Assembly: GCA_020638555.1 (NCBI GenBank)
Contig: JACKII010000001.1
Location: 1,287,829-1,351,828 of the forward strand
Reading direction: 5' to 3'
Length of the DNA: 64,000 bases
DNA from: Alphaproteobacteria bacterium
GTDB taxonomy: Bacteria; Pseudomonadota; Alphaproteobacteria; Bin95
The translations under genes and the position numbers were made by a program. The notes beneath the pieces were generated by a model. That model saw nothing but the letters and a program-made list of their open reading frames with translations, was not told the DNA's origin and did not search any database. The stretch's first letter is position 1. Each line of letters opens with the position of its first letter. Below, piece by piece: positions 7,902 to 27,144 of this stretch.

Positions 7902-8049
7902 GGAAGCCGCTGCCCCCCATGGCACCAGCCCCACCACCCCCGATGCCGTCGCGGTCCGCGTCGGCTGCAACAGCATAGCGTATCCAATCCGGGTCGACGG
8001 TTCCGCGAGGTGCCGTCTGTCCGGTTCTCGGGAAGCAGAAGAGGCCATT

Positions 8050-8559: not shown

Positions 8560-8661
8560 GCCGCCCGAACCGGTCCCGATCGTCCCGGCGCCGGGGTGCC
8601 GGGCCGGCGTGGTCGGGACCGGGGGCAGGATCGGGCGCAGGCGGTCCGCCGCACCCGGCCA

Positions 8662-8994
8662 TCAGTGCGAGATCATCCACGGTCTGGCCGTCGGGAAGGA
8701 TTTGGAGCCGTCCGGCCGGCTGAGCGTCTTGCGGGACGCGGTCCGGCCGCCGCTGCAACAGGCGCAGCCGGGGCCATGACTGGAAAGGCGTTTCGGACTG
8801 TCCGCCGCGCGCTCGTTGGTGGCGTGGGCCTGGCGCTGGACAGCGTCCATGCGCAGCACCCGCGGCACCGTCAGCATGACCCGCGGCGCGTCGGCGCCGC
8901 AGTCGGGGCAGGCGCAGGGGCGGTCGTACTCGGCCATGGGGCGCATGGCCGAGAACACGCCGTCCTGCTCGCACCGATATTCGTAGAGGGGCAT
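8662..8994 (-). CDS. fmdB: FmdB-family zinc-ribbon putative regulatory protein
   Basis: MPLYEYRCEQDG...CPDCG...CACCSG Cys-ribbon; directly downstream of the formamidase gene, as in fmdA-fmdB loci. Confidence 0.7.
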   Translation of the reverse strand: MPLYEYRCEQDGVFSAMRPMAEYDRPCACPDCGADAPRVMLTVPRVLRMDAVQRQAHATNERAADSPKRLSSHGPGCACCSGGRTASRKTLSRPDGSKSFPTARPWMISH

Positions 8995-9009
8995 GGGCGA
9001 TGGCTCTCC

Positions 9010-10185: not shown

Positions 10186-10293
10186 ATTCTCGTTGGTGTG
10201 CGGGTTTCGCTCAGATTGACTTCAATGATCGGCGTGTCAGTCTGGCTCCCTTTCGGCCGGTGCTGGCTTTTGCGCGGGGATTTGCGGGAAGGG

Positions 10294-10989
10294 TCAGACG
10301 GACAGGAAGCGGGAGACCTTGCGCCTCGTCGATGCGGCGCGCGCGGCGCTTCGTGCACGAATTCGCCGTTTTCGATCACGAGCACGCGGTCGGCGACGTC
10401 GAGCGCGAAGCGCAGCACCTGCTCCGAGACGACGATCGGCGAGGCCGCGCTGGTCGCGGATGCGCTTCAAGGTGCGCGCCATTTCCTTGATGATCGACGG
10501 CTGGATGCCCTCGGTCGGCTCGTCGAGCAGCAACACCTTGGGGTCGGACGCCAGCGCGCGCGGCGATGGCGAGCTGCTGCTGCTGGCCGCCGAGAGATTG
10601 CCGCCGCGGCGGGACTTCATCTCCAGCAGCACCGGGAACAGCTCGTAGATGCTCCTCGGGCTGACCGCGGACTTGCCGGTGGCGGTCAGGCCGGTCTCCA
10701 CATTCTCCTGCACCGTCATGGTGGAGAAGATTTGCCGGCCCTGGGGCACATAGGCGATGCCGTTGGCGACGCGCTGATAGGGCTTCAGCCGGGTGACCTC
10801 GGTGCCGTCGACGCTGACCGCGCCGGTCTTGGCCGGGACGATGCCGATCAGGGTTTTCATCAGCGTGGTCTTGCCCATGCCGTTGCGGCCCATGATGGCG
10901 ACGATCTCGCCCGGCTCCACCTGGAAGTCGAGGCCGTGCAGCACCTCGGATTCGCCATAGGCCGCGCGCAGGTTGGCGATGGAAAGCAT
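10294..10989 (-). CDS. urea/amide-type ABC transporter ATP-binding protein (UrtE-like), with local frameshifts
   Basis: Walker A GRNGMGKTT; DEPTEGIQPSII; the signature LSGGQQQQLAIARA is readable only in a shifted frame (read as LSAASSSSSPSPRA); the C-terminal ~40 aa (LRFALDVADRVLVIENGEFV) are in another frame. Confidence 0.65.
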   Translation of the reverse strand: MLSIANLRAAYGESEVLHGLDFQVEPGEIVAIMGRNGMGKTTLMKTLIGIVPAKTGAVSVDGTEVTRLKPYQRVANGIAYVPQGRQIFSTMTVQENVETGLTATGKSAVSPRSIYELFPVLLEMKSRRGGNLSAASSSSSPSPRALASDPKVLLLDEPTEGIQPSIIKEMARTLKRIRDQRGLADRRLGAGAALRARRRRPRARDRKRRIRARSAARAASTRRKVSRFLSV

Positions 10990-11000
10990 GGCGGTCTCCT

Positions 11001-11747
11001 TTAGTGTCCCAGATAGACTTCGACGACCTTCGGGTCGGCCTGCACGTGCTCCATCGAGCCCTCGGACAGCACCTTGCCCTGATGCAGAACGGTGACGCGG
11101 GTGGCGATGTCCTCGGCGAACTTCATGTCATGCTCGATCACGATCACCGAGCGGTCGCGGACAATGCGCTGTAGCAACTCCGCGGTCTTGACCCGCTCGG
11201 CCACCGACATGCCGGCCACCGGCTCGTCTAGCATCAGCAATTGCGGGTCCTGGATCAGCAACATGCCGATTTCGAGCCATTGCTTCTGGCCATGGCTGAG
11301 AAAAGCGGCCTTTTCGTTCAGGGCGCTGTCCAGGAAGATGGTCTCGGCCACCTCGCGGATGCGCTCGATCACCGCCGCGTCGCGCTGGAAGAACAGCGCG
11401 CCGAAGACGCCGTGGCCCTTGGGGTATGAAATCTCCAGGTTTTCGAACACGGTCAGGTCCTCATAGACCGACGGCGTCTGGAATTTGCGGCCGACGCCGG
11501 CATGGACGATCTGGTCCTCGCGCAGGGTCAGCAATTCCTGGCCCTTGAACTTGACCGAGCCGGCGGTGGCCTTGGTGCGGCCGCAGATCAGGTCCAGAAC
11601 CGTGGTCTTGCCCGCACCGTTCGGGCCGATGATGACCCGGCACTCGTTCGGGTCGATATAGAGGCTGAGATCGTCCACCGCCTTGAAGCCGTCGAACGAG
11701 ACCGTGAGCCCTTCCACCGCCAGCAGGAATTCGGATGCGTCTGCCAT
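11001..11747 (-). CDS. urea/amide-type ABC transporter ATP-binding protein (UrtD-like)
   Basis: 248 aa; Walker A GPNGAGKTT; LSHGQKQWLEIGMLL; LLMLDEP. Confidence 0.85.
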   Translation of the reverse strand: MADASEFLLAVEGLTVSFDGFKAVDDLSLYIDPNECRVIIGPNGAGKTTVLDLICGRTKATAGSVKFKGQELLTLREDQIVHAGVGRKFQTPSVYEDLTVFENLEISYPKGHGVFGALFFQRDAAVIERIREVAETIFLDSALNEKAAFLSHGQKQWLEIGMLLIQDPQLLMLDEPVAGMSVAERVKTAELLQRIVRDRSVIVIEHDMKFAEDIATRVTVLHQGKVLSEGSMEHVQADPKVVEVYLGH

Positions 11748-11759
11748 GGGAACTCCCTC

Positions 11760-12893
11760 CTACTCGGCCGGCGCGCGGACGGTGGGCGCGGACGCCTTGT
11801 CGGCGGCGCGTTGCGGCAGCAGCTTGCGCAGATTGGGGGCGATATACTGGTCGTAGATGCCGGCCAGGCCGTTCGGGAACACCAGCACCACGGCGATGAA
11901 CAACCCGCCGAGGCCCAGGAGCCAGATTTCGGGAAAACTCTCGGAGAAGGTGGTCTTGGCCCAGTTCACCAGCAGCGCGCCATAGACCGCGCCGAAGATC
12001 GAAAGCCGTCCACCGACGGCGCAGAAGATCACCATCTCGATCGAGGGCACGATGCCGACGAAGCTCGGCGACATGAAGCCGACCTGCAACGTGAACATCG
12101 CCCCGCCGATGGCGGCGAAGGCGGCGCCGACGCAGAAGACGAAGATCTTGAAATTGGCCACGTCATAGCCGGAAAAGCGCACCCGGTCCTCCTGGTCGCG
12201 CATGGCGATCAGGATGCGGCCCAGCTTCGACTTGGCGATGAAGTGGGCGGCGAACAGGCAGGCGAACAGCAGCGCGCCGTTGACGAAATAGAGGACGGTC
12301 TTGGCCTCGTCCGTGCGGATGTCCCAGCCTTGCAGCGTGCGCAGGTCGGTGATGCCGTTGACGCCGCCGGTATAGCCCTGCTGGCCGATGATCAGGATGG
12401 TGAGGATCGCGGCCACGGCCTGGGTGATGATGGCGAAATAGACGCCGCCCACCCGCCGCTTGAACATGGCGACGCCGATGACGAAGGCGAAGAGGGTCGG
12501 CACGGCCACGACCGCGAACAGGGTGAAGTGCAGGCTGTAGAAGGGCTGCCACCAGGACGGCAAGGCCGTGAGCTGGTTCCAGTCCATGAAGTCGGGGATG
12601 CCCGGCGTGGACTGGATCTTGGTGGCCTCGGGCGTGGAGGCTTCCAGCTTCAGGAACATGGCCATGCAATAGCCGCCCAGGCCGAAGAAAATGCCCTGGC
12701 CCAGGCTCAGAATGCCGCCCGCGCCCCAGCACAGCACCAGGCCGACCGCGACGAAGGCATAGGTCAGGTACTTGCCGAACAGGTTGAGGCGGAAGGAGTC
12801 GAGGGCGGCCGGCAGCACCAGGAAAATGACGGCGGCGAGGACGGCGAAGCCGACCATCTCCGACAGGGTGAAATAGCGGTTGCGCGCAAGCAT
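11760..12893 (-). CDS. urea/amide-type ABC transporter permease (UrtC-like)
   Basis: 377 aa multi-TM branched-chain-type permease with long N-terminal extension, typical of UrtC. Confidence 0.8.
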   Translation of the reverse strand: MLARNRYFTLSEMVGFAVLAAVIFLVLPAALDSFRLNLFGKYLTYAFVAVGLVLCWGAGGILSLGQGIFFGLGGYCMAMFLKLEASTPEATKIQSTPGIPDFMDWNQLTALPSWWQPFYSLHFTLFAVVAVPTLFAFVIGVAMFKRRVGGVYFAIITQAVAAILTILIIGQQGYTGGVNGITDLRTLQGWDIRTDEAKTVLYFVNGALLFACLFAAHFIAKSKLGRILIAMRDQEDRVRFSGYDVANFKIFVFCVGAAFAAIGGAMFTLQVGFMSPSFVGIVPSIEMVIFCAVGGRLSIFGAVYGALLVNWAKTTFSESFPEIWLLGLGGLFIAVVLVFPNGLAGIYDQYIAPNLRKLLPQRAADKASAPTVRAPAE

Positions 12894-12906
12894 GACGGTC
12901 TTTCCC

Positions 12907-13749
12907 CTATTTCCGCAGCTTCAGGGCGAACAGGCCCTGCGGGCGCAGCATCAGAATGCCGACCACCGTCATCAGCGTGAGCACCTTGGCCATGGAGCCG
13001 GACAGGAAGAACTCCATGATCGATTGCGCCTGGCTGATGGAAAACGCCGAGGCGATGGTGCCGAGCAGGCTGGCCGCGCCGCCGAACACCACCACCAGGA
13101 AGGTGTCGACGATATAGAGCTGGCCCGCCGTCGGCCCGGTCGAGCCGATCATGGTGAAGGCCGCGCCGGCGACCCCGGCGACGCCGCAGCCGATGCCGAA
13201 GGTCAGGCGGTCCGTGCGTTCGGTGTTGATGCCGACCGCGCCCGCCATGGTCCGGTTCTGGGTGACGGCGCGGACCTGCTTGCCCCAGCCGGAGCGGAAC
13301 AGCAGGAAATAGACCGCCAGCGAAATGCCCAGCGCCAGCATCATCACGAACAGGCCGTTGATCGGCACCTCGATCAGGTCGGTCACCTGGAGCGCGCCCA
13401 TCATCCAGTCGGGAATGGTGACGCCCACCTCGCGCGCGCCGAACACCGAGCGATAGACCTGTTGCAGGATCAGGCTGAGGCCCCAGGTGGCCAGCAGCGT
13501 ATCCAGCGGCCGTTTGTAGAGGTGGCGGATCAGCGCCCACTCCACCAGCATTCCCAGCCCGCCGGAGACGAAGAAGGCCGCAATCATCGCGATGAAGAAA
13601 TAGATGCCGAACAGGCCCGGCAGGTAATCGGCGAAGACGTGCGACAGCAGGTAGGTGACATAGGCGCCCAGGATCATGAATTCGCCGTGGGCCATGTTGA
13701 TGACGCCCATCTGGCCGAAGATGATCGCCAGGCCGAGCGCCATCAACAC
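12907..13749 (-). CDS. urea/amide-type ABC transporter permease (UrtB-like); N-terminus appears frameshifted up to about 13831
   Basis: LAIIFGQMGVINMAHGEF...; the upstream conserved MFADYSIGE.. and ..FAMQGFAGLILFFGL segments lie in two other frames. Confidence 0.75.
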   Translation of the reverse strand: MLMALGLAIIFGQMGVINMAHGEFMILGAYVTYLLSHVFADYLPGLFGIYFFIAMIAAFFVSGGLGMLVEWALIRHLYKRPLDTLLATWGLSLILQQVYRSVFGAREVGVTIPDWMMGALQVTDLIEVPINGLFVMMLALGISLAVYFLLFRSGWGKQVRAVTQNRTMAGAVGINTERTDRLTFGIGCGVAGVAGAAFTMIGSTGPTAGQLYIVDTFLVVVFGGAASLLGTIASAFSISQAQSIMEFFLSGSMAKVLTLMTVVGILMLRPQGLFALKLRK

Positions 13750-13936
13750 AAAGACCGAAAAACAGGATCAGGCCCGCAAAGCCCTGCATCGCAAAGATGG
13801 CGCCAATTCGCCAATCGAATAGTCGGCGAACATGGGATTCCGTTCTCCGTCGGCGGCCCGGACGCCGCCCGCGTCGCGGGCGCGCGACGCCGGCGGTCCC
13901 GGTCGCGGAGTGCTGTGCGCGGCGGGGGGCAGAGGC

Positions 13937-15212
13937 TTACTGGTAGCCCTCCGGGAACGGATCGGGCTCGACCAGGTCGGCGGTCTCGTACACCACCTCG
14001 TACTGGCCGTCGCTGCGGGCCTTGCCGACGCGCGTCTTGGACCAGAGGTGATGGTTTTCGTGGATGCGGACGTAAGCCTTCCGGCGCCTTGGTGAACTCG
14101 ATGCCCGGCGACGCCGCCGCGATCTTGTCGATATCGAAGGAGGCCGGCCTTTTCCGACCGCCATTTCCACAGCCACGGCCCGAGATAGGCGGCCTGGCGT
14201 CACGTCGCCGATCACCATGTTCTCGCCCCACATCTTCTTGAAAGGCGGCGACGAACGCGCCTTGTTGTTCGGGTTGTCCAGCGCTCTGGAAGTACTTCAT
14301 GCAGGCGCATGCGCCGACGATGTTCTCGCCGCCGATGCCGCGATTTCGTCTTCAGTCACCGAAATGGTGAGCAGCAGCGGTTTTGCTTGGTCGATCGATG
14401 CCGGCCGCCTTCAACTGCTTGTAGAAGGCGACGTTGGACCCGCCGACGACGATGGCATAGATCACGTCCGGCTTTTTCAGGCGGATCTTGTTGATGACCG
14501 AGTTGAACTGGGTGTGGCCGAGCGGATAATACTCCTCGCCCACCACTTTCAGGCCCAGCTGGCTTTCGATGTGCTTGCGCGCGATCTTGTTCGAGGTGCG
14601 CGGCCAGATATAGTCGGAGCCCAGCAGATAAAACGACTTGGCGCCCTTGGTCTCGGCCACCCAGTTCAGGCCGGCAATGATCTGCTGCGTCGCCTCCTGG
14701 CCGGTGTAGATCACGTTCGGCGACTGTTCCAGGCCCTCATAGAAGGTCGGATAGTAGAGGAAGCCGTTATACTGCTCGAATACCGGCAGCACCGCCTTGC
14801 GGCTGGCCGACGTCCAGCAGCCCATGACCGAGGCAACCTTGTCGTTGACCAGCAGCTTCTTCGCCTTTTCGGCGAAGGTCGGCCAGTCGGAGGCGCCGTC
14901 TTCCTGGATGAATTCGATCTTGCGGCCCAGCACGCCGCCCATGGCGTTGATCTGCGCGATGGCCAGCTTTTCCGCCTGGACCGACCCGGTCTCGGAAATC
15001 GCCATCGTGCCGGTGATCGAGTGCAGAATGCCGACGGTCGCCGTGGTGTCGGTCACGGCCAGGCCCGTGGTGTTGACCGCCGCGGTCGGGAAGTCCGCCG
15101 CCCGCAGGAATTTCGGCGCGAACAGGCCGGCGGTCAGCGCCGCACCGCCCGCCAGGACGCTGCGGCGGCTCAGGGGGCCGAGAATGGGCGATGTGGGATC
15201 CTTGTCGGACAT
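13937..15212 (-). pseudogene. urea/amide ABC transporter substrate-binding protein (UrtA/FmdD-like), interrupted by at least five frameshifts between about 13940 and 14400
   Basis: intact N-terminus with Tat/Sec-like signal ([42 protein letters not shown]); the C-terminal conserved blocks ([77 protein letters not shown]) are distributed over three frames. Confidence 0.7.
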
Positions 15213-15276
15213 AGCGCGCTCCTTCGTTTCATGACCGGGGCGGATGAACCGCCGACTTGACGAAGGATCGATGTGA

Positions 15277-15291
15277 TGTTGCATTGCAACA
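15277..15291. promoter_or_regulatory. perfect 7-1-7 palindrome TGTTGCA-T-TGCAACA in the divergent promoter region
   Basis: lies between the urtA-like operon (minus strand) and the NCS1-domain kinase gene (plus strand). Confidence 0.4.
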
Positions 15292-15379
15292 ATGGGCAGA
15301 AATGCGTAGTGCCCTCGGCAAAAGTGCGGCTTAGCTTTCCTGCAATCCCGGCCAGGCGTCGTCTGTCCGAACACCGCGA

Positions 15380-18300
15380 TTGAGAGGCCCGATGGCCGGC
15401 GACATTTCGGTTTCCCGCTTGAGGCGCACCTATAATCAATGGGTTGCCAACGAGACGCTTGAAGATTTTGCCCTGCGTTTCACCGCGTTCCGGGCGCGGA
15501 AATGGTCGTCACTGCGCGTGGCGAACACCGCCATCGGTTCTATTTCATTCCTGGCGCTGGAGGCCATCGGTGGGGCGATGACCCTGACCTACGGCTTTAA
15601 CAACGCAGTTGCAGCAATTTTAATCGTCGGCGCCGTTTTGTTCATCACCGGGGTGCCCATCGCCTATCACTCGGCCAGGGCCGGGGTGGATATCGACCTG
15701 CTGACCCGCGGCGCCGGCTTTGGCTATCTCGGTCGACGATCACCTCGTTGGTCTATGCCAGCTTCACCTTCATCTTCTTTGCCCTCGAAGCCGCGATCCT
15801 CGGCGCAGCGCCTGGAATGTGCCTCGGATTCGCTTGCCGATCGGCCTATCTTCTCAATGCGTTGCTGGTTATTCCGCTGGTCACCCACGGCTTCGCCCGC
15901 ATCGGCGTCTTTCAGAAATGGACGCAACCGCTCTGGATCGTCTTGCAGGTGCTGCCGTTCGTGGCCCTGGCCTGGGTCGGCAGCGAGGCCCTGCCGTGGG
16001 TGCGCCACCAGGGCCTGCCGCAAGGGCAGGTGGGCGCGAGCCTGGACCCGATCATGGTTGCCGCAGCAACGGGCATCGCGTTCGCATTGATCGCGCAAAT
16101 CGGCGAGCAGGTCGACTTCCTGCGCTTTCTGCCCCAACCCGAAAACCGGCGCGAGCGGCTTTCCTGGTGGCTCGCCCTGCTGGCGGCCGGGCCGGGCTGG
16201 GCCGTGATCGGCACGCTGAAAATGCTGGCCGGCTCGATCCTGACCGTGTTGATCCTGAATGCGGACGTGCCGGTGGAAGCCGCGATCGAGCCGACCATCA
16301 TGTATCTCGCGGCCTATGAGCGGTTCCTGCCGCCGGAGGCCGCGCTCGTCTTCACCATCGGCTTTGTGATCCTGGCGCAGCTCAAGATCAACGTAACCAA
16401 CGCCTATGCCGGCTCCATCGCCTGGTCGAACTTTTTCGCCCGCGTGACCCACAGCCATCCGGGCCGCGTGGTCTGGCTCGTGTTCAATGTCGCCATCGCG
16501 CTGATGCTGATGCAGTTCGGTGTGTTCGGGGCGCTGGAGAACACGCTGGCATTCTACTCCCACGTGGCGCTGGCCTGGATCGGGGCGATCACGGCGGACC
16601 TGATGATCAACCTGCCGCTCGGATTGCGCCCCCGACGGATCGAATTCCGCCGGGCCTATCTCTTCGACATCAACCCGGTCGGTGTGGGCGCGGCGGTGCT
16701 GGCGACGGGCCTTTCCCTGGTCGCATCGCTGGGTTTTCTCGGCGGCAATGTCGCGGCGTTTTCCAGCTGGATCGCGTTCGGCACCGCCATGATCGCGGCG
16801 CCGGCGATCGCCATCGCCACGAAAGGCCGGTTCTACCTGGCCCGGACGCCGCCGCCGCAGAGCCGCGCGGGGGAGCGCACGTGCATCATCTGTGAACACA
16901 AGTTCGACGGCCAGGACATGGTCGACTGCCCGTTTCACGGCGGCGCGGTCTGCTCGCTCTGCTGCACGCTGGAATCGCAATGCGAGGATGCGTGCAAGCC
17001 GGCGGCCCGGCTGCATCGCCAGGCGGCGGTGCTGGCCGGCCGGGTGCTGCCGGCCGGGATGCAGAAAACCGTGCTGACCCGCTATGGCGCCTTCGCCCCG
17101 ATCTTCGGCGCCATGGCGTTGGTCGTCGGCGTGCTTTTGCTGATCGTCTACCAGAATTTTCGCGTGGTCTCGCCCGATGCGGCCGATGCGGTCGGGCGCG
17201 CCCTGGCCCTGTCCTTCATGATCCTGGTGATCCTGGTGGGCGTTACCGCCTGGCTCTACACGCTGTCCGAGGAAAGCCGCATTCTCGCCAATCGCGAGCG
17301 GGAGCAGCAGACGCAGCGCCTGGTGGCCGAGATCGAGGCCCACCGGCGCACGGATGCGGAATTGCAGGAAGCGAAGGAGGCGGCGGAGGCCGCCAATCGC
17401 GCCAAGAGCCGGTATCTGGTGGGCATCACGCACGAATTGCGCACGCCTCTGAACGCGATTCTCGGCTATGCGCAGTTGCTGGAAAACGACCAGACCATTC
17501 CCGAACATCGCCGCCCGAGCGTGCGCACCATCCGCCATTCCTCCGAACACCTGGCCGACCTGATCGAAGGGCTGCTCGACATTTCCAAGATCGAGGCGGG
17601 GCGGATCGACGTCTACCGGATGGAGGTCAATCTGCGCGAACTGCTCGACCAGATTTGCGCCATCTTCGCCATCGAGGCCCGGGCCAAGGGGCTGGAATTC
17701 GTGGCCGAAATCGCCCCGGACACGCCGGCCTTCGTCTTTGCCGACGAGCGCCGGCTGCGGCAGATCCTGATCAATCTGCTGGCGAACGCGGTCCGCTACA
17801 CCGACAGGGGATCGGTCCGCCTGTCGGTGTTCTTCCGCAACGACATCGCGCATATCGCCGTGTCCGATACCGGCCGCGGCATTCCCCGTGCCGACTGGGA
17901 CCGGATTTTCACGCCGTTCGAGCGCATCGTCGATCCGAACAATGTCGTCCCGGGCACGGGGCTTGGGCTGACCATCACCAAGCTGCTGGTGGAGATGCTG
18001 GGCGGCGAACTGACGTTCGAGAGCGCCGTCGGCAAGGGGTCGAGTTTCCGCGTGCGCCTGTTCCTGAACCGCAGCGGGCGTGTGGCGCCGGCCGCGCAGG
18101 TGCGGCCGCGTTGCGGCTATCTGGGGCCGCGCCGGCATATTCTGATCGTCGACGACAATCACAGTCATCGCCAGTTGCTGGCCGATGCGCTCGGCCCGCT
18201 CGGCTTCCTGCTGTCCATGGCGGAGTCGGGTGACGTGGCGCTCACCGTCGCCCGCACCAAGCCGCCGGATCTGGCCCTGATCGACGTGGCCATGCCGGGC

Positions 18301-18735
18301 ATGACAGGGGTGGAGCTGGCCGAACGCCTGCGCCACGAATGCGGGCTCAAGGCGCCGTTGATCCTGGTCTCCGCCCATGCCGGCGACCAGTTGCACGGCC
18401 TCGGCGGCAATCCCACCCATGACGGATTCATCGCCAAGCCGGTCAATATCCCGGCCTTGCTGGACCGGATCGGCGAGGCGCTCCAACTCGCCTGGACCCA
18501 TGACGCCCCCGCGCCGGCCGCCGACCTGCCGCTCTGGGCGCCCTCTGAGACGCTGGCGGCCCTGGAGGAGAAGCTGGCAATCGCCCATCTGCGCGGCTTG
18601 CAGACGCTCCTGGCCGGCATGGACGCCACCGACCCGCGCACCGGGTCCTTCCGGCATCGGGCCGCGGCGCTCGTCGAGGCGGTCGATCTGGAAGGTCTCG
18701 CTGTCCTGATAAGGGAAACCCGCCATGCCGCCTGA
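15380..18735 (+). CDS. hybrid sensor histidine kinase with an N-terminal NCS1 (purine/cytosine/allantoin permease-like) 12-TM domain, HisKA-HATPase and a C-terminal receiver; one frameshift near 15730
   Basis: ORF 15380..16090 (NCS1-like: [32 protein letters not shown]) continues in ORF 15748..18735 (more TM helices, then [13 protein letters not shown] coiled coil, H-box [15 protein letters not shown], HATPase [25 protein letters not shown]); the join GAGFGYLG / [13 protein letters not shown] needs a 1-nt indel. Confidence 0.7.
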
Positions 18736-19654
18736 GTCCCCCATGGAGCCGCGCCGGCTGGTGCTTTTGGTCGATGACAGCCCGGAGGCCCTGACGGCCC
18801 TGGTCGAGGCGCTGGAGGATGCCGCCCTGACCGCGTTGGTGGCCCGCGACGGGCTTTCCGCCCTGGCCCTGCTCGACCGGGTGCGTCCCGATTTGATCCT
18901 GATGGATGCCGCGATGCCCGGCATCGATGGGTTCGAGACCTGCCGGCGGATCAAAAAGCGGCCCGAATTCTCGCTGACGCCGATCATCTTCATGACCGGG
19001 CTGACCGAGCGCGAGCATGTGCTCGCCGGTCTGGAGGCGGGCGGGGTCGACTATGTGACCAAGCCCATCGACCAGCAGGAAATGCTGGCGCGCATCCGCA
19101 TTCACCTGACCAATGCCGGTTTCGTCCAGGATGCGCGCGCGGCATTGGATGCGGCGGGGCCGGGTGTGCTGGCCATCGCCCGCGATGGCTCGACGCAATG
19201 GCTGTCCCGCCGGGCGGAGGAGCGGCTTGGCAGCGGCCTGGAGAACGTGTCCGAGAATGGCCGCAGCACCATATCCCTCTGGTTGGCCGAGACCGCGGGG
19301 CAGCCGCTGTCCGAATGCCGGCCCTTGGATATCCGCCTTGAGGACGGCAAGCTCGCCCGTCTCCAGGTTATCGGCCGCCCGGCCAGCGGCGATACCCTGG
19401 TCGGCGTTGCCTTGCAGGAGAACAGCAAGGACAGCGAAGTGCTCAGCCGCAAGCTGGGCCTGTCGCAGCGGGAAGGGGAGGTGCTGTCCTGGCTTGCGAA
19501 AGGGAAATCGAACAAGGACATCGCCACCATCCTGCACCTGAGCCCGCGGACGGTGACCAAGCATATCGAGAAAATCCTGGAAAAACTGGGCGTGGAGAAC
19601 CGAACCTCCGCCGCGATCCTTTCCGTCAAGATATTGATGAATTCGCAAGTGTGA
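18725..19654 (+). CDS. response regulator: receiver + linker + LuxR-type HTH
   Basis: REC LVLLVDDSPEAL..D..LILMDAAMPGIDG; C-terminal LuxR HTH LSQREGEVLSWLAKGKSNKDIATILHLSPRTVTKHIEKILEKLGV; overlaps the kinase stop. Confidence 0.85.
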   Translation: MPPESPMEPRRLVLLVDDSPEALTALVEALEDAALTALVARDGLSALALLDRVRPDLILMDAAMPGIDGFETCRRIKKRPEFSLTPIIFMTGLTEREHVLAGLEAGGVDYVTKPIDQQEMLARIRIHLTNAGFVQDARAALDAAGPGVLAIARDGSTQWLSRRAEERLGSGLENVSENGRSTISLWLAETAGQPLSECRPLDIRLEDGKLARLQVIGRPASGDTLVGVALQENSKDSEVLSRKLGLSQREGEVLSWLAKGKSNKDIATILHLSPRTVTKHIEKILEKLGVENRTSAAILSVKILMNSQV

Positions 19655-20132
19655 TTGCAAAGGCGATGGCAGTGACAAAAGCAATGCGTGCGTGAGGCCG
19701 GGTTCCGGCGGTATCCGATGGCTGCGTCGTGTCCGAGGCCGTATCCGAGGCGCGATGTGCGCGGTTGGCCGCTCTCGGCGCTGCGCGGCGGCTACGGTTT
19801 TCCGGCGCGCTCGCACCCCATCGCGTTGCGAGGCCCCGGCGGGCCGAACCCGGCGGTGTGCGGCGGACGGCGGGGCTTCCGCGCCCTTGCCGCCGCTCGG
19901 GGCGGAATTGCGGTCCCGGTCTCGCGTCAAAAAGGGCCATTGAACCGCTTACCGCAATCGATCCTATCTCGCCGGGCGTCGGGGGCAGACGGACGAGGCC
20001 GACTTGAGCGGCGACGGATGCGCAGGGCGCGAGATTGAGGAGCGAGGCCATGGCGCACCGCTACGCACACGATCGCCATCACACGCACGACCCCGCAGCC
20101 GCCCCGCCGGGCGCGGGCCGGGGGGCGCGGCC

Positions 20133-21362
20133 ATGATCCGCCATTCGGTTCGCGGCTGCATCACCGTCATCCCGGTCGTCGCAGCCCTGCTCGTCGCCCC
20201 GCTCGATCCGGCCCTGGCGCACCTGGCCGAGGCGATCACGGCGCGCACGGCCTGGGCCGCCTGGGATTTCACGCCGGATGTGGTCCTGCTCACCGGGTTG
20301 GCGGTGGCGATCTACATGGCCGGCCTGGTCCGGCGGCATGGCAGCAAGGTGACGACCCATTGGTGGCGGCACGCGTTGTTCCTGGCCGGTGTGGCGGCGG
20401 TCTTCCTCGCCCTGGAATCGCCGATCGACCCGATCGCGGAGCACCTGTTTTTCGTGCACCAGATCCAGCACCTGCTGTTGCATATGGTGGGGCCGATGCT
20501 GCTGGCGCTGTCCTGGCCGCAGGCGACGTTGACCGCCGGCCTGCCCGGTGCGGTCAAGACCGGGGTGCTGGCGCCGACCCTGACCAATGTCACGCTGCGG
20601 CGGGTGTTCGGCTTCCTGACCCATCCGGCCATCGTGACCGTGTTGTTCATCCTGTCCCTGTATTTCTGGGAAATCCCGCGCTTCCACAATTTCGCGCTGC
20701 TGAACGAGCCGGTTCACTACCTGATGCATGTCACCATGCTGGTGGCGGGCCTGCTGTTCTGGTGGCGGGTTTTCGACCGGCGTCCGCCGCGAACGCCCAT
20801 CGACCTGGACGACGATTTCGTGCCCTGGTGGCGCCCGTTCGCAAGGCGCCGTGCCGGCCATGGCCTGAATTACGGCGTTCGGCTGATGATGGTGTGGATC
20901 GTCGTTCTCTCCAACATTCTGCTCGGCGCCTACACCACGCTCAAAATGGCCCCGCTCTATACGGCGTATGCGGCGCTGGGGCGTCTGTTCGGCTACACGG
21001 CCCATGCGGACGAGATGCTGGGTGGCTTCGTCATCTGGATTCCCAGCAGCATGATGTGCCTGATCGCCGTGCTGATCGTGATCCATCTCTGGGGGCTGTA
21101 CGAAACCCGGATGGACCGGCTCCGCGTCGCGCGGCCGTTGTCGAATTCCGACGCCCTGCTCTATCCGCGGACCCGTCAGGCGGTGATCGAGCGCGCGGCC
21201 CCCAAGAACCGCGCGGTGGCGAGCGGGCTGGTCGTGTTCGTCATCGGCGTGTTCGTCACGGCCATCGTCACGGGCATTCTCGGCGCCGCGGCGGGTTCCG
21301 GGCGGGCCGCAGCGCCGCAGACGACGCTTCGGCCGCACCGCGGCGGTCACGCGGCGGAGTAG
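20133..21362 (+). CDS. polytopic membrane protein, cytochrome c oxidase assembly factor CtaG (Caa3_CtaG)/CopD-like
   Basis: multiple TM helices with His-rich motifs EHLFFVHQIQHLLLHMVGP and HYLMH; the start is taken at MIRHSVRGC; it lies upstream of the copper cluster. Confidence 0.45.
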   Translation: MIRHSVRGCITVIPVVAALLVAPLDPALAHLAEAITARTAWAAWDFTPDVVLLTGLAVAIYMAGLVRRHGSKVTTHWWRHALFLAGVAAVFLALESPIDPIAEHLFFVHQIQHLLLHMVGPMLLALSWPQATLTAGLPGAVKTGVLAPTLTNVTLRRVFGFLTHPAIVTVLFILSLYFWEIPRFHNFALLNEPVHYLMHVTMLVAGLLFWWRVFDRRPPRTPIDLDDDFVPWWRPFARRRAGHGLNYGVRLMMVWIVVLSNILLGAYTTLKMAPLYTAYAALGRLFGYTAHADEMLGGFVIWIPSSMMCLIAVLIVIHLWGLYETRMDRLRVARPLSNSDALLYPRTRQAVIERAAPKNRAVASGLVVFVIGVFVTAIVTGILGAAAGSGRAAAPQTTLRPHRGGHAAE

Positions 21363-23218
21363 GCTTCCAGCTTTTCCATGTGCAGCAGCCATTGCGCCTC
21401 GGCCCGGTCGAGCGCCTCCGTCACCTCGGCAAACTTCTTTTGCAGCGTCTCCGCCTGCTCGGAACTGGCCTTGGTGTAGAAGTCCGGGTCGGCCAGGGTG
21501 GCGACGATCTTATCCTTGATTCCGGTAAGCTTTTCGACCCGCTCTTCCCAGGCGCGCACGGTCTTGCGCAGGGCCAGGGTTTCCTCCCGGCTCGGCCGTT
21601 TCGCACCGCGGGCGGGTTCGGCGGGTTTGGCCGGCTTTGCCTCCTCTTTCGCCGTGGCGACGCCCTTCAGATACAGGTCGCGATAGGCTTCGAGGTCGTC
21701 CTCGTACGGGCGGACGCGGCCCTTGTGCACCAGCCAGAGCCGGTCGGCGACGGCCGAGAGCAGGTGCATGTCATGGCTGACCAGGATCACGGCGCCGCTA
21801 TAGGCGTTCAGCGCCTCCACCAGCGCCTCGCGGCTTTCGATGTCGAGGTGGTTGGTGGGCTCGTCCAGGATCAGCAGGTGCGGCGCCGGCAGCGTGGCGA
21901 GCAGCAGCGACAGCCGCGCCTTCTGGCCGCCGGACAACCGGCCGACCGGCGTTTCCGCCTGGTCCGGCCCCAGGCCGAAGCCGGCGAGGCGCGCGCGCAG
22001 GCGGCTTTCGTGCTGGCCCGGCTGTTCGCGCATCAGGTGCTGCAACGACGTCTCGCGGACGTCCAGCTCCTCCACCTGGTGCTGGGCGAAAAAGCCGACC
22101 CGCAGCTTGCGCGCCGCCGTGATCTCGCCCGCCATCGGCTTCAGCCGGTCCGACAGCAGCTTGGCGAGCGTGGTCTTGCCCTCGCCGTTGCGGCCGAGCA
22201 GCGCGATGCGGTCGTCCTGGTCCAGGCGCAGGTTCAGGCCCGACAGCACCGGCCGGCCGTCATAGCCGACGGCGACGCCGTCCAGCGTCAGGATCGGCGA
22301 GGCCAGTTCCTCCGGCTCCGGAAAGGTGAAGCGGGTGCGCGCCTCGTCTTCCGGCGCGCGGATGATCTCCATCTTTTCCAGCATCTTGACGCGGGCCTGC
22401 GCCTGCTTCGCCTTGGTGGCCTTGGCGCGGAAGCGGTCGACAAAGCTTTGCAGGTGGGCGCGCCGCGCCTCCTGCTTTTTCGCCTGGGCCGCCTGCAACG
22501 CCCGCTGGGCGGCACGCTGGCGGGCGAACTGGTCATAGGGGCCGGAGTAATAGGTGAGGCTGCGGTTTTCCAGATGCAGGATCGAGCCGACCGCCCGGTT
22601 CAGCAATTGCCGGTCGTGGCTGATGATCAGGACCGTGTGCTCGTAGCGGGCCAGATAGGTCTCCAGCCAGAGCGCGCCTTCCAGGTCCAGATAGTTGGTC
22701 GGCTCGTCCAGCAGCAGATAATCGGGGGCCGAGAACAGCACCGCCGCCAGCGCCACCCGCATGCGCCAGCCGCCGGAAAAGGCGGAGCAGGGCATTTGCT
22801 GCTCGTCGTGGCTGAAGCCCATGCCGGCGAGGATGGTGGCGGCCCGGCTTTCGGCCGACCAGGCGCCGATGTCGGCGAGGCGGGTCTGGATTTCGGCGAT
22901 GCGGGCCGGGTCGCTGGCGGTTTCCGCCTCCGCCAGCAGGGCGGCGCGTTCGGTGTCGGCCGCCAGCACGGTGTCCAGCAGCGAGACCTCGTTGGAGGGA
23001 ACCTCCTGGTCGACGCCGCCGATGCGGGCGCGGGCCGGGATGGCGATCTCGCCGCCATCCGGCTGCAACTCGCCGCGGATCAGGCGAAACAGGGTGGTCT
23101 TGCCGGCGCCGTTGCGGCCGATCAGGCCGACCTTGTGGCCGGTCGGGATCGTGGCCGACGCGTCCTGGAACAGCGGGCGGCCTTCGATGGCGAAATTGAG
23201 GTTGGTGATGCGCAGCAT
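21347..23218 (-). CDS. ABC-F family ATPase (Uup/YheS-like), two ABC domains plus C-terminal coiled coil
   Basis: 623 aa; two Walker A motifs (GRNGAGKTT, GRNGEGKTT); two LSGG signatures; charged helical C-terminal tail. Confidence 0.85.
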   Translation of the reverse strand: MLRITNLNFAIEGRPLFQDASATIPTGHKVGLIGRNGAGKTTLFRLIRGELQPDGGEIAIPARARIGGVDQEVPSNEVSLLDTVLAADTERAALLAEAETASDPARIAEIQTRLADIGAWSAESRAATILAGMGFSHDEQQMPCSAFSGGWRMRVALAAVLFSAPDYLLLDEPTNYLDLEGALWLETYLARYEHTVLIISHDRQLLNRAVGSILHLENRSLTYYSGPYDQFARQRAAQRALQAAQAKKQEARRAHLQSFVDRFRAKATKAKQAQARVKMLEKMEIIRAPEDEARTRFTFPEPEELASPILTLDGVAVGYDGRPVLSGLNLRLDQDDRIALLGRNGEGKTTLAKLLSDRLKPMAGEITAARKLRVGFFAQHQVEELDVRETSLQHLMREQPGQHESRLRARLAGFGLGPDQAETPVGRLSGGQKARLSLLLATLPAPHLLILDEPTNHLDIESREALVEALNAYSGAVILVSHDMHLLSAVADRLWLVHKGRVRPYEDDLEAYRDLYLKGVATAKEEAKPAKPAEPARGAKRPSREETLALRKTVRAWEERVEKLTGIKDKIVATLADPDFYTKASSEQAETLQKKFAEVTEALDRAEAQWLLHMEKLEAYSAA

Positions 23219-23873
23219 GACGGCGGGATGTGCCGGATGCGGGCCGGGCCGTCAATCGGCTAGGCGGGGGAGGGGGCGGGATGCCACGGCCGGTACGGCC
23301 CCGTTGCGGGCGGTGGACAGGGCGGCGGGAATCGCCTATCCAATTCCGGTGTCCAATCCGTCCCCCCGAACAAAATGGTTCGCCCCCTTGTGGTCCCTGC
23401 CCAGTCTCAGGCGGCTGACCCTGGTCATTGCGATGGCCTTGGCTCTGTGCGTTGCGACCCTGGGCGGCAGCGCCGTTGCCTTCGGTCCGGTCCACCAGGC
23501 CGCGGACTGTTGCGATGGCCAGGGCGCCAATGGCGGTTGTGATCGCGGCGGTATGCACCGGGCGGGACACTGGGAGGTCAAGGCGCCGGTTTCCGAACAT
23601 GATAAGGGCCGCGCGCACGAGTGCGGCGCTCTGGCCGGCCATTGCGGCGGCCCGGCCCTCGGCGCGGGCTCCGTTGCGGCGTCCCACTGCCCGATCGGCA
23701 AGGCGAAAGTGGCGCCGGCCGGCGATGGCCCCGCGGCCTCGCGTGTCCTGGACGTCGAGACACCGCCCCCTCGCGTCTAGCGTTTGCAGATGAGGGCTGC
23801 CGGCCGCCGGCCGCGCCTTCATTCGCGGTATTCGTCACCCATTCTGCAAATGTTTCGATACGAGGACCCACTT

Positions 23874-24488
23874 ATGGGCAAATCCCCGATATTTTGTGCG
23901 CCGCGCATCCTGGCCGTAGCGGCGGTCGCCTCCCTCCTTTCGCTGCCGGCTCTGGCGTCCGGCTCCCATGCCGGCGGGCATGGCGACGGACACGGCGGCG
24001 GGCATGGGGGCGGCATGGCCATGCAAGGCCAGCCCGGCGAGGCGGCCAATGTCTCGCGCACCGTGAATGTCGTCATGCACGACAATTCCTACGAGCCGGG
24101 CAGCATCTCGGTTAAGCCGGGCGAGACGGTCCGCTTCAAGATCCGCAATGCCGGCGAACTGGTGCACGAGTTCAATATCGGCACCGCCGCCATGCACGCC
24201 GATCATCAGGAAGAAATGATGATGATGATGCAGCAGGGCGTGCTCATGCCGGACCATATCGACCGGATGGCGGCCCGGCACATGCAGAAGACCATGGGCC
24301 ACGGCATGCACAACGATCCGAACAGCGTGCTGCTGGAGCCGGGCCAGTCCGGGGAGGTGATCTGGACCTTCCCGAAGCAGGCCGCGGCCGAGATCGAATT
24401 CGGCTGCAACGTGCCGGGCCACTACCAGTCCGGCATGCACGGCCAATTCCGGATGCCGGGCCAACCCCACACGAGCGGCGGTTCCTGA
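23874..24488 (+). CDS. periplasmic cupredoxin-like copper-binding protein with His/Met-rich regions (CopI-like)
   Basis: signal peptide; His-rich SGSHAGGHGDGHGGGHGGGM; Met-rich HQEEMMMMMQQG; C-terminal cupredoxin ligand pattern CNVPGHYQSGMHG. Confidence 0.65.
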   Translation: MGKSPIFCAPRILAVAAVASLLSLPALASGSHAGGHGDGHGGGHGGGMAMQGQPGEAANVSRTVNVVMHDNSYEPGSISVKPGETVRFKIRNAGELVHEFNIGTAAMHADHQEEMMMMMQQGVLMPDHIDRMAARHMQKTMGHGMHNDPNSVLLEPGQSGEVIWTFPKQAAAEIEFGCNVPGHYQSGMHGQFRMPGQPHTSGGS

Positions 24489-24562
24489 CCGCCGGGCGAG
24501 GCATTCGGTGCATTGCGCCGGGTGCCCCCTCTCCGATCCAAGCTTCCAACAGAGGATAGACG

Positions 24563-26353
24563 ATGGAGACCATCGGCTTTGTCCGGGCCTGTGCGCTCGG
24601 TCTCGGCCTGGTTGCGCTCCCCATGGGCAGCGCTTCCGCCGACACGTACAATCTCACGGTCGACCGGGTGACGGTCGACACCGGCGACTTCACCAAGACC
24701 GGCGTCGGCTTCAATGGCCGCGCGACGCCGACCGTCCTGCGCTTCCACGAGGGCGAGGCGGTCACGATCAACGTCACCAACAACCTGTCCGAGGATACCT
24801 CGGTCCACTGGCACGGCTTGATCCTGCCGTTCGACCAGGACGGCGTGCCGAAGATCAGCTATCCCGGCATCGCGCCGGGCCAGACCTTCACCTACCGTTT
24901 TCCGATCCGCCAGGCCGGCACCTACTGGTTCCACAGCCATAGCGGCTACCAGGAACCGGACGGGGCCTATGGCGCCATCGTCATCGCGCCGAAGGAGGGC
25001 GAGCCGGTCCGCTATGACCGGGATTATGTGGTGCAACTGGCCGACGCGCATCCGCACCCGGGCAACCGCATCATGCGCAACCTGAAAATGATGCCGGACT
25101 ATTACAACCGCCGCCAGCGCACGCTGTTCGACTTCCTGCGCGACTCGGAGGAGAAGGGGCTGGGGCCCGCGCTCGCCGACCGCCGCGCCTGGGGCGAAAT
25201 GCGGATGATGCCGACGGATATCGAGGATCTCCAGGGCTTCACGCCGCTGATCAACGGCAAGGGGCCGGACCAGAACTGGACCGGCCTGTTCAAGCCGGGC
25301 GAGCGGGTGCGGCTGCGCTTCATCAACTCCTCGGCCATGACCTATTTCGACATCCGCATTCCCGGCCTGAAAATGACGGTGGTGCAGGCGGACGGCAACG
25401 CTGTCGAGCCCGTGCCCGTCGACGAGTTCCGCATCGCCGTGGCCGAGACCTATGACGTGGTCGTCCAGCCCTCGGACGAGAAGGCCTACACGATCTTTGC
25501 CGAATCCATGGGCCGGACGGCCTTTGCCCGCGGCACGCTCGCGCCGCGGCCGGGCATGCGCGCCGCCGTGCCGGCACTGCGCCCGCCGGGGCTCCTGACC
25601 ATGGCCGATATGGGCATGGCTCATGGCGACATGGCGGGCATGGACCATGGCAGCATGGCCGGAATGGACCATGGCGACATGGCGGGCATGGACCATGGCA
25701 GCATGGCCGGAATGGACCATGGCGACATGGGCCAAGGCTCGGACGCCCAGACGCACGCCATGCCGGACGGCAGCCAGATGCCGGGGATGGACCATTCGGG
25801 CCATGCCGGGATGGCGGCCGCCGCCAGGCCGGACCCGTTTTATGCGCCGGGCAGCGGCCTCGCCCCGCAGGCGGCGCAGGCCGGTGGCAAGATGCTGTCC
25901 TATGCCGACCTGAAGGCGCAGCGCCCGCTCTATGCCTACCGCGAGGCGACGCGCGAGATCGAACTCCGCCTGACCGGCAACATGGAGCGCTATATCTGGT
26001 CGATCAACGGCGTGAAATACGAGGACGCCGAGCCGATCCGCCTGCAATACGGCGAGCGCGTGCGCTTCAAATTCGTCAACGAAACCATGATGACCCACCC
26101 GATGCACCTGCACGGCATGTGGTCGATCCTCGACAACGGCAACGGCGCGTGGAACCCGGTCAAGCACGTCATCAGCGTCGCGCCCGGCACGACCGTCACC
26201 ACCGAGACCGAGGTGGATGCGCCCGGCCAATGGGCCTTCCACTGCCATCTTTCCTACCACGCCGACAGCGGCATGTTCCGAAAGGTCGTCGTCGAGGGCG
26301 GTCCGGGCAAGGCCCGTTCCACCGCCTCGGCCGCGCCGGTCACCGGAGGCTGA
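24563..26353 (+). CDS. copA: copper-resistance multicopper oxidase CopA with Met/His-rich insert
   Basis: 596 aa; HWHG and HSH copper sites; HCHLSYH; tandem MAGMDHGS/MAGMDHGD repeats. Confidence 0.85.
   Translation: METIGFVRACALGLGLVALPMGSASADTYNLTVDRVTVDTGDFTKTGVGFNGRATPTVLRFHEGEAVTINVTNNLSEDTSVHWHGLILPFDQDGVPKISYPGIAPGQTFTYRFPIRQAGTYWFHSHSGYQEPDGAYGAIVIAPKEGEPVRYDRDYVVQLADAHPHPGNRIMRNLKMMPDYYNRRQRTLFDFLRDSEEKGLGPALADRRAWGEMRMMPTDIEDLQGFTPLINGKGPDQNWTGLFKPGERVRLRFINSSAMTYFDIRIPGLKMTVVQADGNAVEPVPVDEFRIAVAETYDVVVQPSDEKAYTIFAESMGRTAFARGTLAPRPGMRAAVPALRPPGLLTMADMGMAHGDMAGMDHGSMAGMDHGDMAGMDHGSMAGMDHGDMGQGSDAQTHAMPDGSQMPGMDHSGHAGMAAAARPDPFYAPGSGLAPQAAQAGGKMLSYADLKAQRPLYAYREATREIELRLTGNMERYIWSINGVKYEDAEPIRLQYGERVRFKFVNETMMTHPMHLHGMWSILDNGNGAWNPVKHVISVAPGTTVTTETEVDAPGQWAFHCHLSYHADSGMFRKVVVEGGPGKARSTASAAPVTGG
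25622..25730 (+). repeat. 48-bp perfect tandem duplication inside copA encoding the Met-rich motif
   Basis: catggcgacatggcgggcatggaccatggcagcatggccggaatggac occurs twice back-to-back, followed by a partial third copy. Confidence 0.8.
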
Positions 26354-26357
26354 AGCC

Positions 26358-27062: not shown

Positions 27063-27065
27063 CCC

Positions 27066-27100: not shown

Positions 27101-27144
27101 CCGGCCCCGCGAATTTCGGGCGCTCCTGCGACCCGGAAACCGCG

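Follow-up and report, generated by a model that had tools for sequence, protein, structure and literature searches.

A hybrid histidine kinase with a divergent NCS1-like transporter domain as the candidate sensor of a urea/short-chain amide uptake and formamidase operon

The 64,000-nucleotide stretch of alphaproteobacterial DNA analyzed here (contig JACKII010000001.1, positions 1,287,829 to 1,351,828, denoted below as the window) encodes a hybrid histidine kinase with an N-terminal domain of twelve transmembrane helices (12-TM domain) and, overlapping its stop codon, a LuxR-type response regulator, both transcribed divergently from urtABCDE-fmdA-fmdB. On balance, this pair is probably a dedicated two-component system for the divergent operon, which would serve the uptake and hydrolysis of formamide, short-chain amides and urea. 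According to structure prediction and profile alignment the sensor domain is a divergent NCS1-like module of the LeuT fold and not a demonstrable member of PF02133. The evidence from gene order, fold comparison, conserved intergenic elements and a second assembly is laid out below, together with the readings that compete with it.

Architecture of the kinase-regulator locus and of the divergent operon

Two overlapping open reading frames (ORFs) of the + strand, 15380..16090 and 15748..18735, lie in different frames and together encode one hybrid histidine kinase of about 1114 residues. The two ORFs, the HisKA, HATPase_c and receiver domains and the receiver-LuxR protein overlapping the kinase stop had been recognized in a preliminary description of the locus, and all are present in the ORF list and in Pfam searches; GTGLGLTI and the other peptides quoted there are found in the translations. 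An alternative TTG start at 15380 agrees with the start of the homologues. From hydropathy the order is 12 TM helices (residues ~50-480), a cytoplasmic Cys-rich part, two more TM helices, a charged helix and HisKA. With HisKA and its H-box histidine, HATPase_c and a fused receiver all in place, the protein is a hybrid sensor histidine kinase. The elements of the pair are as follows.

15392..18735, + strand: hybrid sensor histidine kinase gene, frame broken by a 1-nt deletion at 15733
15521..16818, + strand: 12-TM LeuT-fold NCS1-like sensor domain, residues ~44-476 of the joined protein (hydropathy, AlphaFold2 (AF2), Foldseek, hhalign)
16882..16995, + strand: cytoplasmic 8-Cys domain (Cys8), probably a two-metal, zinc-finger-like coupling domain
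17083..17265, + strand: TM13-TM14 hairpin, bringing the chain back to the cytoplasm (hydropathy)
17269..17415, + strand: charged helical linker (signalling helix or coiled coil) into the dimerization and histidine phosphotransfer (DHp) domain (sequence)
17404..17601, + strand: HisKA with H-box His, residues 672-737 (Pfam PF00512, E 1.1e-16)
17743..18066, + strand: HATPase_c catalytic domain, residues 785-892 (Pfam PF02518, E 6e-25)
18139..18471, + strand: fused receiver (Response_reg), residues 917-1027 (Pfam PF00072, E 4.8e-18)
18472..18732, + strand: C-terminal helical tail of ~87 residues, no Pfam match at E<=10
18725..19654, + strand: response regulator of 309 residues, receiver and GerE/LuxR helix-turn-helix; its ATG at 18725 overlaps the kinase stop at 18735 by 11 nt

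The regulator is of the NarL/FixJ type, with PF00072 (E 2.4e-28) at residues 13-125 and the GerE domain PF00196 (E 1.6e-20) at residues 246-299. The linker between these two domains is atypically long (120 residues, 126-245, nt 19100-19459), is matched by no Pfam model at E<=10 and may constitute a further domain not described so far.

The operon on the other strand had been described as a urea/amide ABC transporter cluster with a formamidase, which is confirmed by NCBIfam equivalog models. The models were scored on the intact genes of the orthologous metagenome contig L001, where every protein exceeds its cut-off (UrtA 552 against 493 bits, UrtB 405 against 250, UrtC 446 against 296, UrtD 376 against 304, UrtE 331 against 286, FmdA equivalog 756 against 500), and the FmdB family zinc ribbon is matched as well. 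By tblastn the urt and fmd copies of the window are 79-97% identical to the L001 genes.

13940..15212, - strand: urtA, urea/short-chain amide binding protein (tblastn), its 3' half garbled by ~9 window-specific indels
12907-13833, - strand: urtB, with +/-1 indels
11760-12893, - strand: urtC (tblastn, NCBIfam on the L001 orthologue)
11001-11747, - strand: urtD (tblastn, NCBIfam on the L001 orthologue)
10294-10989, - strand: urtE, with +/-1 indels
~9010-10242, - strand: fmdA, formamidase (tblastn, 97% identity to the L001 gene)
8662-8994, - strand: fmdB, zinc-ribbon protein (tblastn, 85% identity to the L001 gene)

Family distribution and association with urt and amidase genes

A search with the joined N-terminal 640 residues returned more than 5,500 protein clusters, nearly all 1,110-1,120 residues long and uninterrupted, while a profile search of 1.84 billion representatives gave 1,790 clusters (50% identity) at E<=1e-3. 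In a scan of one genome per species the family was found in at least 597 species, those listed including Rhodobacterales, Sneathiella, Bradyrhizobium, Afipia, Methylocella, Cellvibrio, Zhongshania and Janthinobacterium. Its members bear the public names 'ATP-binding protein' or 'hybrid sensor histidine kinase/response regulator'.

For the synteny count, 70 genome loci with about 7 kb or more of upstream sequence were fetched. The urt genes are divergent from the kinase in 69 of them, and fmdA is present in 64. The kinase architecture and its neighbours, for which the preliminary description had proposed a database search, are hence found together far beyond the window. In Zhongshania the place of FmdA after urtE is taken by an aliphatic-amidase equivalog, AmiE (711 bits, cut-off 427), and an AmiB-like AAA ATPase. 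Klebsiella plasmids carry a family member of 1126 residues (48% identity over 1075 residues), transcribed divergently from urtABCDE and from a 335-residue amidase that is termed 'formamidase' by PGAP and AmiF in the papers on sequence type 307 (ST307); a LuxR-type gene lies near this kinase-urt block. UrtA is 83.5% identical on the Klebsiella plasmids and is carried by 368 Klebsiella plasmid records. As read from these gene neighbourhoods, the amidase is exchanged by non-orthologous replacement around a constant sensor-regulator-Urt core. The grouping of three unrelated or distantly related amidases (FmdA, AmiE and AmiF) around this core argues for the use of short-chain amides, possibly of urea, and against that of nucleobases or allantoin, both of which had been entertained as ligands and are not favoured by such conserved partners.

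In the literature the Klebsiella cluster appears as the 'novel urea ABC-transport system' of pKPN-307, which has been proposed to aid urinary tract colonisation by K. pneumoniae ST307; the two papers in question describe UrtA, UrtB, UrtC and AmiF only, kinase and regulator being unmentioned (PMC5506382, PMC13060141). LuxR-type two-component genes beside urtABCDE and fmdA are noted, without analysis, in a genome paper on Ectopseudomonas guguanensis (PMC13296017). On the K. pneumoniae plasmid L086 (NZ_CP054968.1) copies of the insertion sequences (IS) IS1 and IS110 at 1081-3965 and 14942-17073 flank the kinase-urtABCDE-formamidase block, which looks like a mobile cargo module. These copies part the LuxR-type gene from the kinase block, and the regulator may be uncoupled there.

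Not every member adjoins amide genes. Locus L083 of the Tistrella mobilis plasmid pTM1 holds, at its positions 8926-13472, a paralogous kinase-regulator pair, with a kinase of 1194 residues, that does not adjoin urt or fmd genes, and the urtA-type gene of Tistrella is found on another plasmid, NC_017966.1. Some members of the family therefore have different targets or remote ones. A kinase locus on a plasmid record was also sought with megablast and given up: only partial matches to paralogues were returned, and the Tistrella paralogue is not beside urt/fmd.

The sensor domain and its relation to NCS1 permeases

Sequence models do not recognize the sensor domain. Residues 1-640 have no match in Pfam even at E<=10 and nothing meaningful in NCBIfam, and a hidden Markov model (HMM) of the 12-TM domain built from 14 sequences finds no PDB sequence at E<=10. 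The precomputed Pfam annotation of 120 homologues comprises kinase and receiver domains only, without PF02133.

The AF2 model of the 12-TM domain (predicted local distance difference test score (pLDDT) 73, predicted TM-score (pTM) 0.77) is closest to NCS1 permeases. The top five Foldseek matches are all of this family, namely CodB (7qoa, E 1.8e-8) and Mhp1 (2jln, E 2.8e-8; 4d1a and 2x79), within a range of 1.8e-8 to 1.6e-7 and with TM-scores of up to 0.65 (query) and 0.73 (target), and the best LeuT-fold structures outside NCS1 (SiaT, NIS, LeuT, LAT1, AdiC, Nramp, DUR3) begin at E 4.6e-5. The domain is thus predicted to adopt a 12-TM LeuT-type fold with NCS1 structures as its nearest relatives. 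Alignment of 65 sensor domains to a CodB-family alignment of low diversity (effective number of sequences, Neff, ~2) with hhalign spans 388 columns and all 12 helices with P 7.8e-5 and a probability of 61.5%, the reversed-template control yielding P 0.23. Comparison with the single CodB sequence is too weak (E 0.052), and the match improved only with alignments on both sides. In the hhalign register three signature stretches are colinear with CodB, 'LL.R..FG..GS' of TM3-4, '.DF.RF' of TM6 and 'N..TN...Y..G' of TM8, LTADFVRF belonging to one of the aligned motif pairs and NIWTTNDNALYASG to another. COG-based names given by JGI to some family members read 'purine-cytosine permease-like protein'.

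No NCS1 or solute-carrier HMM matches the domain, so it is referred to as NCS1-like rather than as a demonstrable member of the NCS1 family. Of the NCS1 sensor proposed in the preliminary description, the transporter-like fold with all 12 TM helices stands and the family membership does not, the lack of an HMM match being what that description had itself named as telling against it.

The cytosine- and Na+-binding residues of CodB have been described (PMC9379551). In the hhalign register, in which the confidence of the alignment is moderate, Q105 is replaced by T130, W108 by F133, F204 by L237, T278 by V339 and N275 by K336, while T340 and N341 preserve T279 and N280. The NCS1 substrate-sandwiching aromatics (TM3 Trp, TM6 Phe/Trp) and the Na2 site (TM8 Thr-Thr) are thus for the most part replaced in the sensor. 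The TM8 asparagine equivalent to CodB N280 is invariant, as is the lysine aligned to N275 of the Na2 site. Altogether 131 columns are invariant among 14 sensor sequences of 60-77% identity.

The Cys8 domain, the C-terminal tail and the portability of the module

The 12-TM domain is followed by the Cys8 domain, whose motif C-x2-C-x12-C-x7-C-x2-CC-x5-C-x3-C is present in 73 of the 86 long family representatives; all eight cysteines are invariant in 27 diverse sequences. Its AF2 model (pLDDT 75.6) gives nothing significant in Foldseek (best E 0.32), the top entries being two-zinc cross-brace fingers of the FYVE/RING/PHD type, and its profile shows only weak similarity to zinc-finger/rubredoxin knuckles among PDB sequences (E 0.016 or worse). 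Since neither search gave a significant match, no fold family is named. The domain is probably a two-metal, zinc-finger-like element coupling the membrane part to the kinase and, by analogy, may be the positional counterpart of STAC in CbrA.

The 12-TM domain and Cys8 together form a portable signalling input. They are found in front of HisKA-HATPase-receiver kinases (sometimes with GAF and a true histidine phosphotransfer (HPt) domain), in front of GAF/PAS-GGDEF-EAL modules, and in standalone proteins of 546-576 residues that end just past the Cys motif. Among the fusions to cyclic di-GMP (c-di-GMP) enzymes are the GAF/PAS-GGDEF-EAL proteins P0140, P0138 and P0130, whose genomic contexts might reveal other ligands.

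The C-terminal tail was considered as a degenerate HPt domain and this assignment was rejected: its last 90 residues have no Pfam Hpt match at E<=10, hhalign against the HPt domain of the family member P0162 gives P 0.72, and the candidate histidine is kept in 76 of 114 sequences. An HPt domain as needed for a His-Asp-His-Asp relay is accordingly not found in the kinase. The phosphate may pass either from the DHp histidine directly to the LuxR-type regulator, with the fused receiver modulating, or via an unlinked HPt protein.

Conserved elements between urtA and the kinase gene

Two elements adjoin each other in the divergent promoter region.

15277-15291: P1, perfect 15-bp palindrome TGTTGCATTGCAACA, 64 nt upstream of the urtA start codon
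15292..15311: P2-like element ATGGGCAGAAATGCGTAGTG, a degenerate form of TACGTCA-N2-TGACGTA with the right half only, as in L001 and L008

P1 has no second exact copy in the window and sits in a block conserved with L001; the right half of P2 in the window lineage reads ATGGGCAGAAATGCGTAG. Both elements were counted in the 77 genome loci whose urtA-kinase intergenic region could be defined. The P1 core T[GA][CT]TGC[AG]-N1-2-[TC]GCA..A is present in 53 of these, 64-99 nt from urtA, and the P2 pattern TACG[TC]-N5-7-[AG]CGTA (typically TACGTCA-N2-TGACGTA) in 64; 49 loci have both and nine have neither, some of the nine with visible variants. In 58 loci of 21 kb each, the urtA-kinase intergenic bin holds all 54 P1 matches and 96 of the 102 P2 matches. 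The intergenic region of the Klebsiella plasmid carries P2 as TACGTCATTTAACGTA.

The palindrome had previously been put forward as the binding site of the regulator. P1 is indeed real and conserved, but P2 is the more widely conserved of the two and extends to Klebsiella plasmids. A 7-2-7 layout is known for sites of NarL-family regulators and is that of P2, which is at least as good a candidate for the regulator site as P1. Both elements are kept wherever the regulator is present, so the comparative data do not assign either of them to it.

Neither a sigma70 consensus promoter nor a terminator was found in 15150-15450; the former result would fit an activator-dependent urtA promoter. An Rfam scan of 8000-20500 gave no riboswitch or small RNA match at E<=1. 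A sigma54 promoter in the intergenic region of the window was considered and rejected by eye, the candidate TGGGCAGAAATGCG having the wrong GG/GC spacing. In most Bradyrhizobium loci (L017, L020, L024 and others) a sigma54-type match, TGGTACGGGATTTGC, points at the kinase about 25-45 nt past the P1 core, for instance at ~9930-9950 of L017, and no equivalent was seen in the window. This sequence match suggests that the kinase-regulator operon of Bradyrhizobium may be under NtrC/sigma54 nitrogen control.

The frameshift at 15733 and the quality of the window sequence

Two lesions are seen in the kinase gene of the window.

15733, + strand: 1-nt deletion (frameshift) in the Gly codon of GFGYLG|STITS, codon 115, common to the metagenome-assembled genome (MAG) contig JAGQRM010000092.1 (L085)
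15801..15843, + strand: window-specific garbled patch with two compensated indel pairs and base swaps, 12 residues garbled; L085 has AQALEYCLGIPLEIA

A frame change of one nucleotide near 15730 had been noticed before and is now located at 15733. In tblastn, residues 5-118 of the intact, 90% identical homologue P0001 (1117 residues) align to 15392-15733 and residues 119-1117 to 15733-18732 in the other frame, and DNA alignment shows one base missing in the Gly codon. The window therefore holds no uninterrupted kinase frame.

The regulator protein occurs residue-for-residue in two MAGs labelled 'Alphaproteobacteria bacterium' at NCBI (MCA8928319.1 and MCB9928948.1), the longest contig being 1.36 Mb. 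Contig L085 (GCA_020425505.1, 13.4 kb) is 99.57% identical to 13982-27371 of the window. All 72 differences are confined to 13979-14874 and 15801-15843, and 15844-27371 is identical. In both patches L085 agrees with the homologues (e.g. LAQALEYCLGIPLEIAYL) and the window is scrambled; urtA is intact in L085. Since L085 reads like the homologues there, the patches of the window would be errors of its assembly or local strain noise. Relative to L001, +/-1 indels cluster at 10321-10592 in urtE, at 13758-13913 in the 5' end of urtB, at 14074-14394 in the 3' half of urtA and at 15733, 15801 and 15820 in the kinase gene. Patches of indels and base swaps at 13979-14874, 15801-15843, 10205-10592 and 13758-13913 split urtA, urtB and urtE into false fragments and look like local consensus errors of long-contig MAG assembly.

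The deletion at 15733 is the sole indel that both assemblies have in common, so the kinase copy of the window organism is most likely a recent pseudogene, and we consider the frameshift likely to be real and of recent origin in this lineage. The choice between frameshift and error, which the preliminary description had posed, hence falls differently for the two lesions, the deletion at 15733 being probably real and the indels at 15801-15843 being window-specific noise. The alternative that the split into two ORFs is nothing but an assembly or sequencing artefact common to both assemblies, the kinase being intact in the living organism, is unlikely, although several observations speak for it: the window carries demonstrable error patches, in which it and not L085 deviates from the homologues, urtB and urtE contain more clusters of +/-1 indels, and the frame-corrected kinase has no premature stops and a low ratio of nonsynonymous to synonymous substitutions (dN/dS 0.05-0.12 for the kinase; 0.05-0.17 for the window against L001). 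It is opposed by L085 being a different assembly, free of the other errors of the window, and by its having proteins on record for the neighbouring genes and none for the kinase. Programmed -1 frameshifting at 15733 was rejected, there being no slippery heptamer at CTCGGTCGA.

Proposed function and competing explanations

For the two-component system favoured above, a mechanism may be sketched from the domain order and from the analogy to CbrA. A small amide or ureide (formamide, acetamide or urea) would bind in the central LeuT-type pocket, and a rocking motion would be passed via the Cys8 domain, in the role that STAC plays in CbrA, and the TM13-14 hairpin to the kinase. The phosphorylated LuxR-type regulator would then bind P2 and/or P1, 64-100 nt upstream of urtA, and activate the operon.

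Several observations weigh against this proposal. The domain matches no NCS1 sequence HMM, the hhalign probability is only 61.5%, and among the key substrate and Na2 residues of CodB only T279 and N280 are kept; P2 is half-degenerate in the window lineage; the kinase is a hybrid lacking an HPt domain; and some paralogues (Tistrella pTM1, L036) lie away from urt/fmd genes. In the open-access literature searched, no ligand, transport, phosphotransfer or DNA-binding experiment on any member was found. On NCS1-like kinases, formamide sensors and two-component systems of urt/fmd operons it likewise yielded annotation-level mentions only and no functional study, in keeping with the earlier statement that no characterized NCS1-domain sensor kinase is known.

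The stronger of two functional alternatives, in itself rather improbable, is that the 12-TM domain is a true transceptor. It would still transport its substrate, be it an amide, urea or some other solute, with signalling as a side effect of the transport cycle, a mode that has been proposed for CbrA. None of the 12 helices of the LeuT/NCS1 fold is missing, standalone versions lack any output domain, and TM8 retains the T279/N280 equivalents together with the invariant lysine aligned to N275; a lysine in the Na2 site has been described for CbrA and other proton-coupled transporters (PMC13022988). Contrary to this, a high-affinity ABC importer is always co-encoded, so that a second uptake route is unneeded, the substrate-sandwiching aromatics and one Na2 threonine are replaced, and the extreme conservation of the domain is more typical of a signalling device.

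That the sensor instead reads a non-amide cue, be it redox state or metal via Cys8, membrane energetics or an ion gradient via the LeuT-fold domain, or general nitrogen status, is improbable: an Fe-S cluster or a redox-active metal could be bound by the eight invariant cysteines, the module also serves as the input of c-di-GMP enzymes, some paralogues stand outside amide loci and the sigma54-like TGGTACGGGATTTGC upstream of the Bradyrhizobium kinase suggests nitrogen control at another level, but synteny with urt and amidase genes is near-universal, the sensor stays while the amidase type changes, and the (non-significant) fold matches of Cys8 are structural two-zinc fingers.

Returning to the dedicated amide-responsive system, a broader proposal is advanced tentatively, at somewhat less than even chances. 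The 12-TM NCS1-like domain with Cys8 may be an undescribed portable input that derives from nucleobase/ureide permeases, has been repurposed for the smallest amides (formamide, acetamide, urea) and feeds kinases, c-di-GMP enzymes and standalone proteins in at least 597 bacterial species. It would then also be the unrecognised sensor of the 'urea transport system' on the K. pneumoniae ST307 plasmid.

Neighbouring genes

Between the regulator gene and a copper-resistance cluster lie genes for a CtaG-like protein (20004-21362) and an ABC-F ATPase (21347-23218, - strand). The cluster itself (23784-31082) comprises a cupredoxin-like protein, a CopA-type multicopper oxidase (24563-26353) and CopB (26217-27062), followed by an OmpR-type regulator (27145-27870, - strand) and another hybrid kinase (29211-31082). 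At 584-2650 a PAS-PAS-HisKA kinase ORF is found for which Pfam gives no HATPase_c at E<=1e-5, yet tblastn with the sensor kinase aligns to 1925-2557. A conserved ORF of 94 codons that neither Pfam nor NCBIfam recognizes runs convergently to the regulator gene in the metagenome contigs L001 (11296-11580, - strand) and L002 (8488-8772).

Significance

The idea of a transporter-fused kinase is already established by CbrA and CrbS; what is new here is the NCS1-like lineage, the Cys8 domain and the link to an amide operon. Essentially all known transceptor kinases belong to the SLC5 family (CbrA, CrbS), and the manner in which the fold of a transporter acts on a kinase is still an open question. 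The family presented here offers a second, independent solution, with another LeuT-fold lineage, another coupling domain and a ligand hypothesis that comes from fixed genomic partners. If borne out, it would provide the missing inducer-sensing regulator of formamidase/short-chain amide uptake operons, and the same system adjoins, unmentioned, the 'urea transport system' of the K. pneumoniae ST307 plasmid. The family has no Pfam, NCBIfam or PDB entry, and its definition would improve the annotation of thousands of 'ATP-binding protein' entries.

Comparison with known systems

The closest parallel in architecture is provided by CbrA, CrbS and MxtR, in which an SLC5/SSS domain and STAC precede the kinase. 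As in these proteins, a LeuT-fold secondary-transporter domain is located N-terminal to a histidine kinase and nutrient-use genes are controlled, and as in CbrA a small cytoplasmic domain (STAC there, Cys8 here) is inserted between transporter and kinase. In the CbrA structure STAC docks under the SLC5 domain and has been proposed to relay transporter motions (PMC13022988). In contrast to the CbrA type, the family of the window kinase is structurally nearest to NCS1 (CodB, Mhp1), with SSS structures about 1000-fold worse (5nv9 and 7uuz, E 4.6e-5 or worse), and neither the SSF nor the STAC domain of Pfam has a match in the window kinase, which is thus not of the SLC5-STAC kind. Coupling here involves the 8-Cys domain and, in addition, a hairpin of two TM helices, the kinase, a hybrid, has a receiver fused to it, and the target is an amide/urea uptake and amidase operon. 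The partner regulator of CbrA is of the NtrC type, whereas that of the window kinase is of the LuxR/NarL type.

With the NCS1 permeases of PF02133, such as CodB (cytosine) and Mhp1 (hydantoin), the sensor domain has the 12-TM LeuT fold and the colinear motifs in the TM3-4 loop, TM6 and TM8 in common. It differs from them in having no PF02133 match at any threshold, in the replacement of most substrate and Na2 residues and in its fusion to signalling outputs.

The urea transport system of K. pneumoniae ST307/clonal group 307 (UrtABC and AmiF, pKPN-307) belongs to the same type of cluster, with a divergent kinase of the same family. Unlike in the window, its amidase is of the AmiF type and not FmdA, and in the plasmid examined IS elements lie between the LuxR gene and the kinase.

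Short-chain amide catabolism under the control of an amide is also known from AmiC/AmiR of the aliphatic amidase operon of Pseudomonas aeruginosa, to which the AmiE and AmiB-like ATPase genes adjoining the kinase family member of Zhongshania provide a link. The mechanism there is of an entirely different kind: the antiterminator AmiR is sequestered by AmiC, a soluble sensor that resembles a binding protein (PMC13209695), and neither a kinase nor a DNA-binding regulator takes part.

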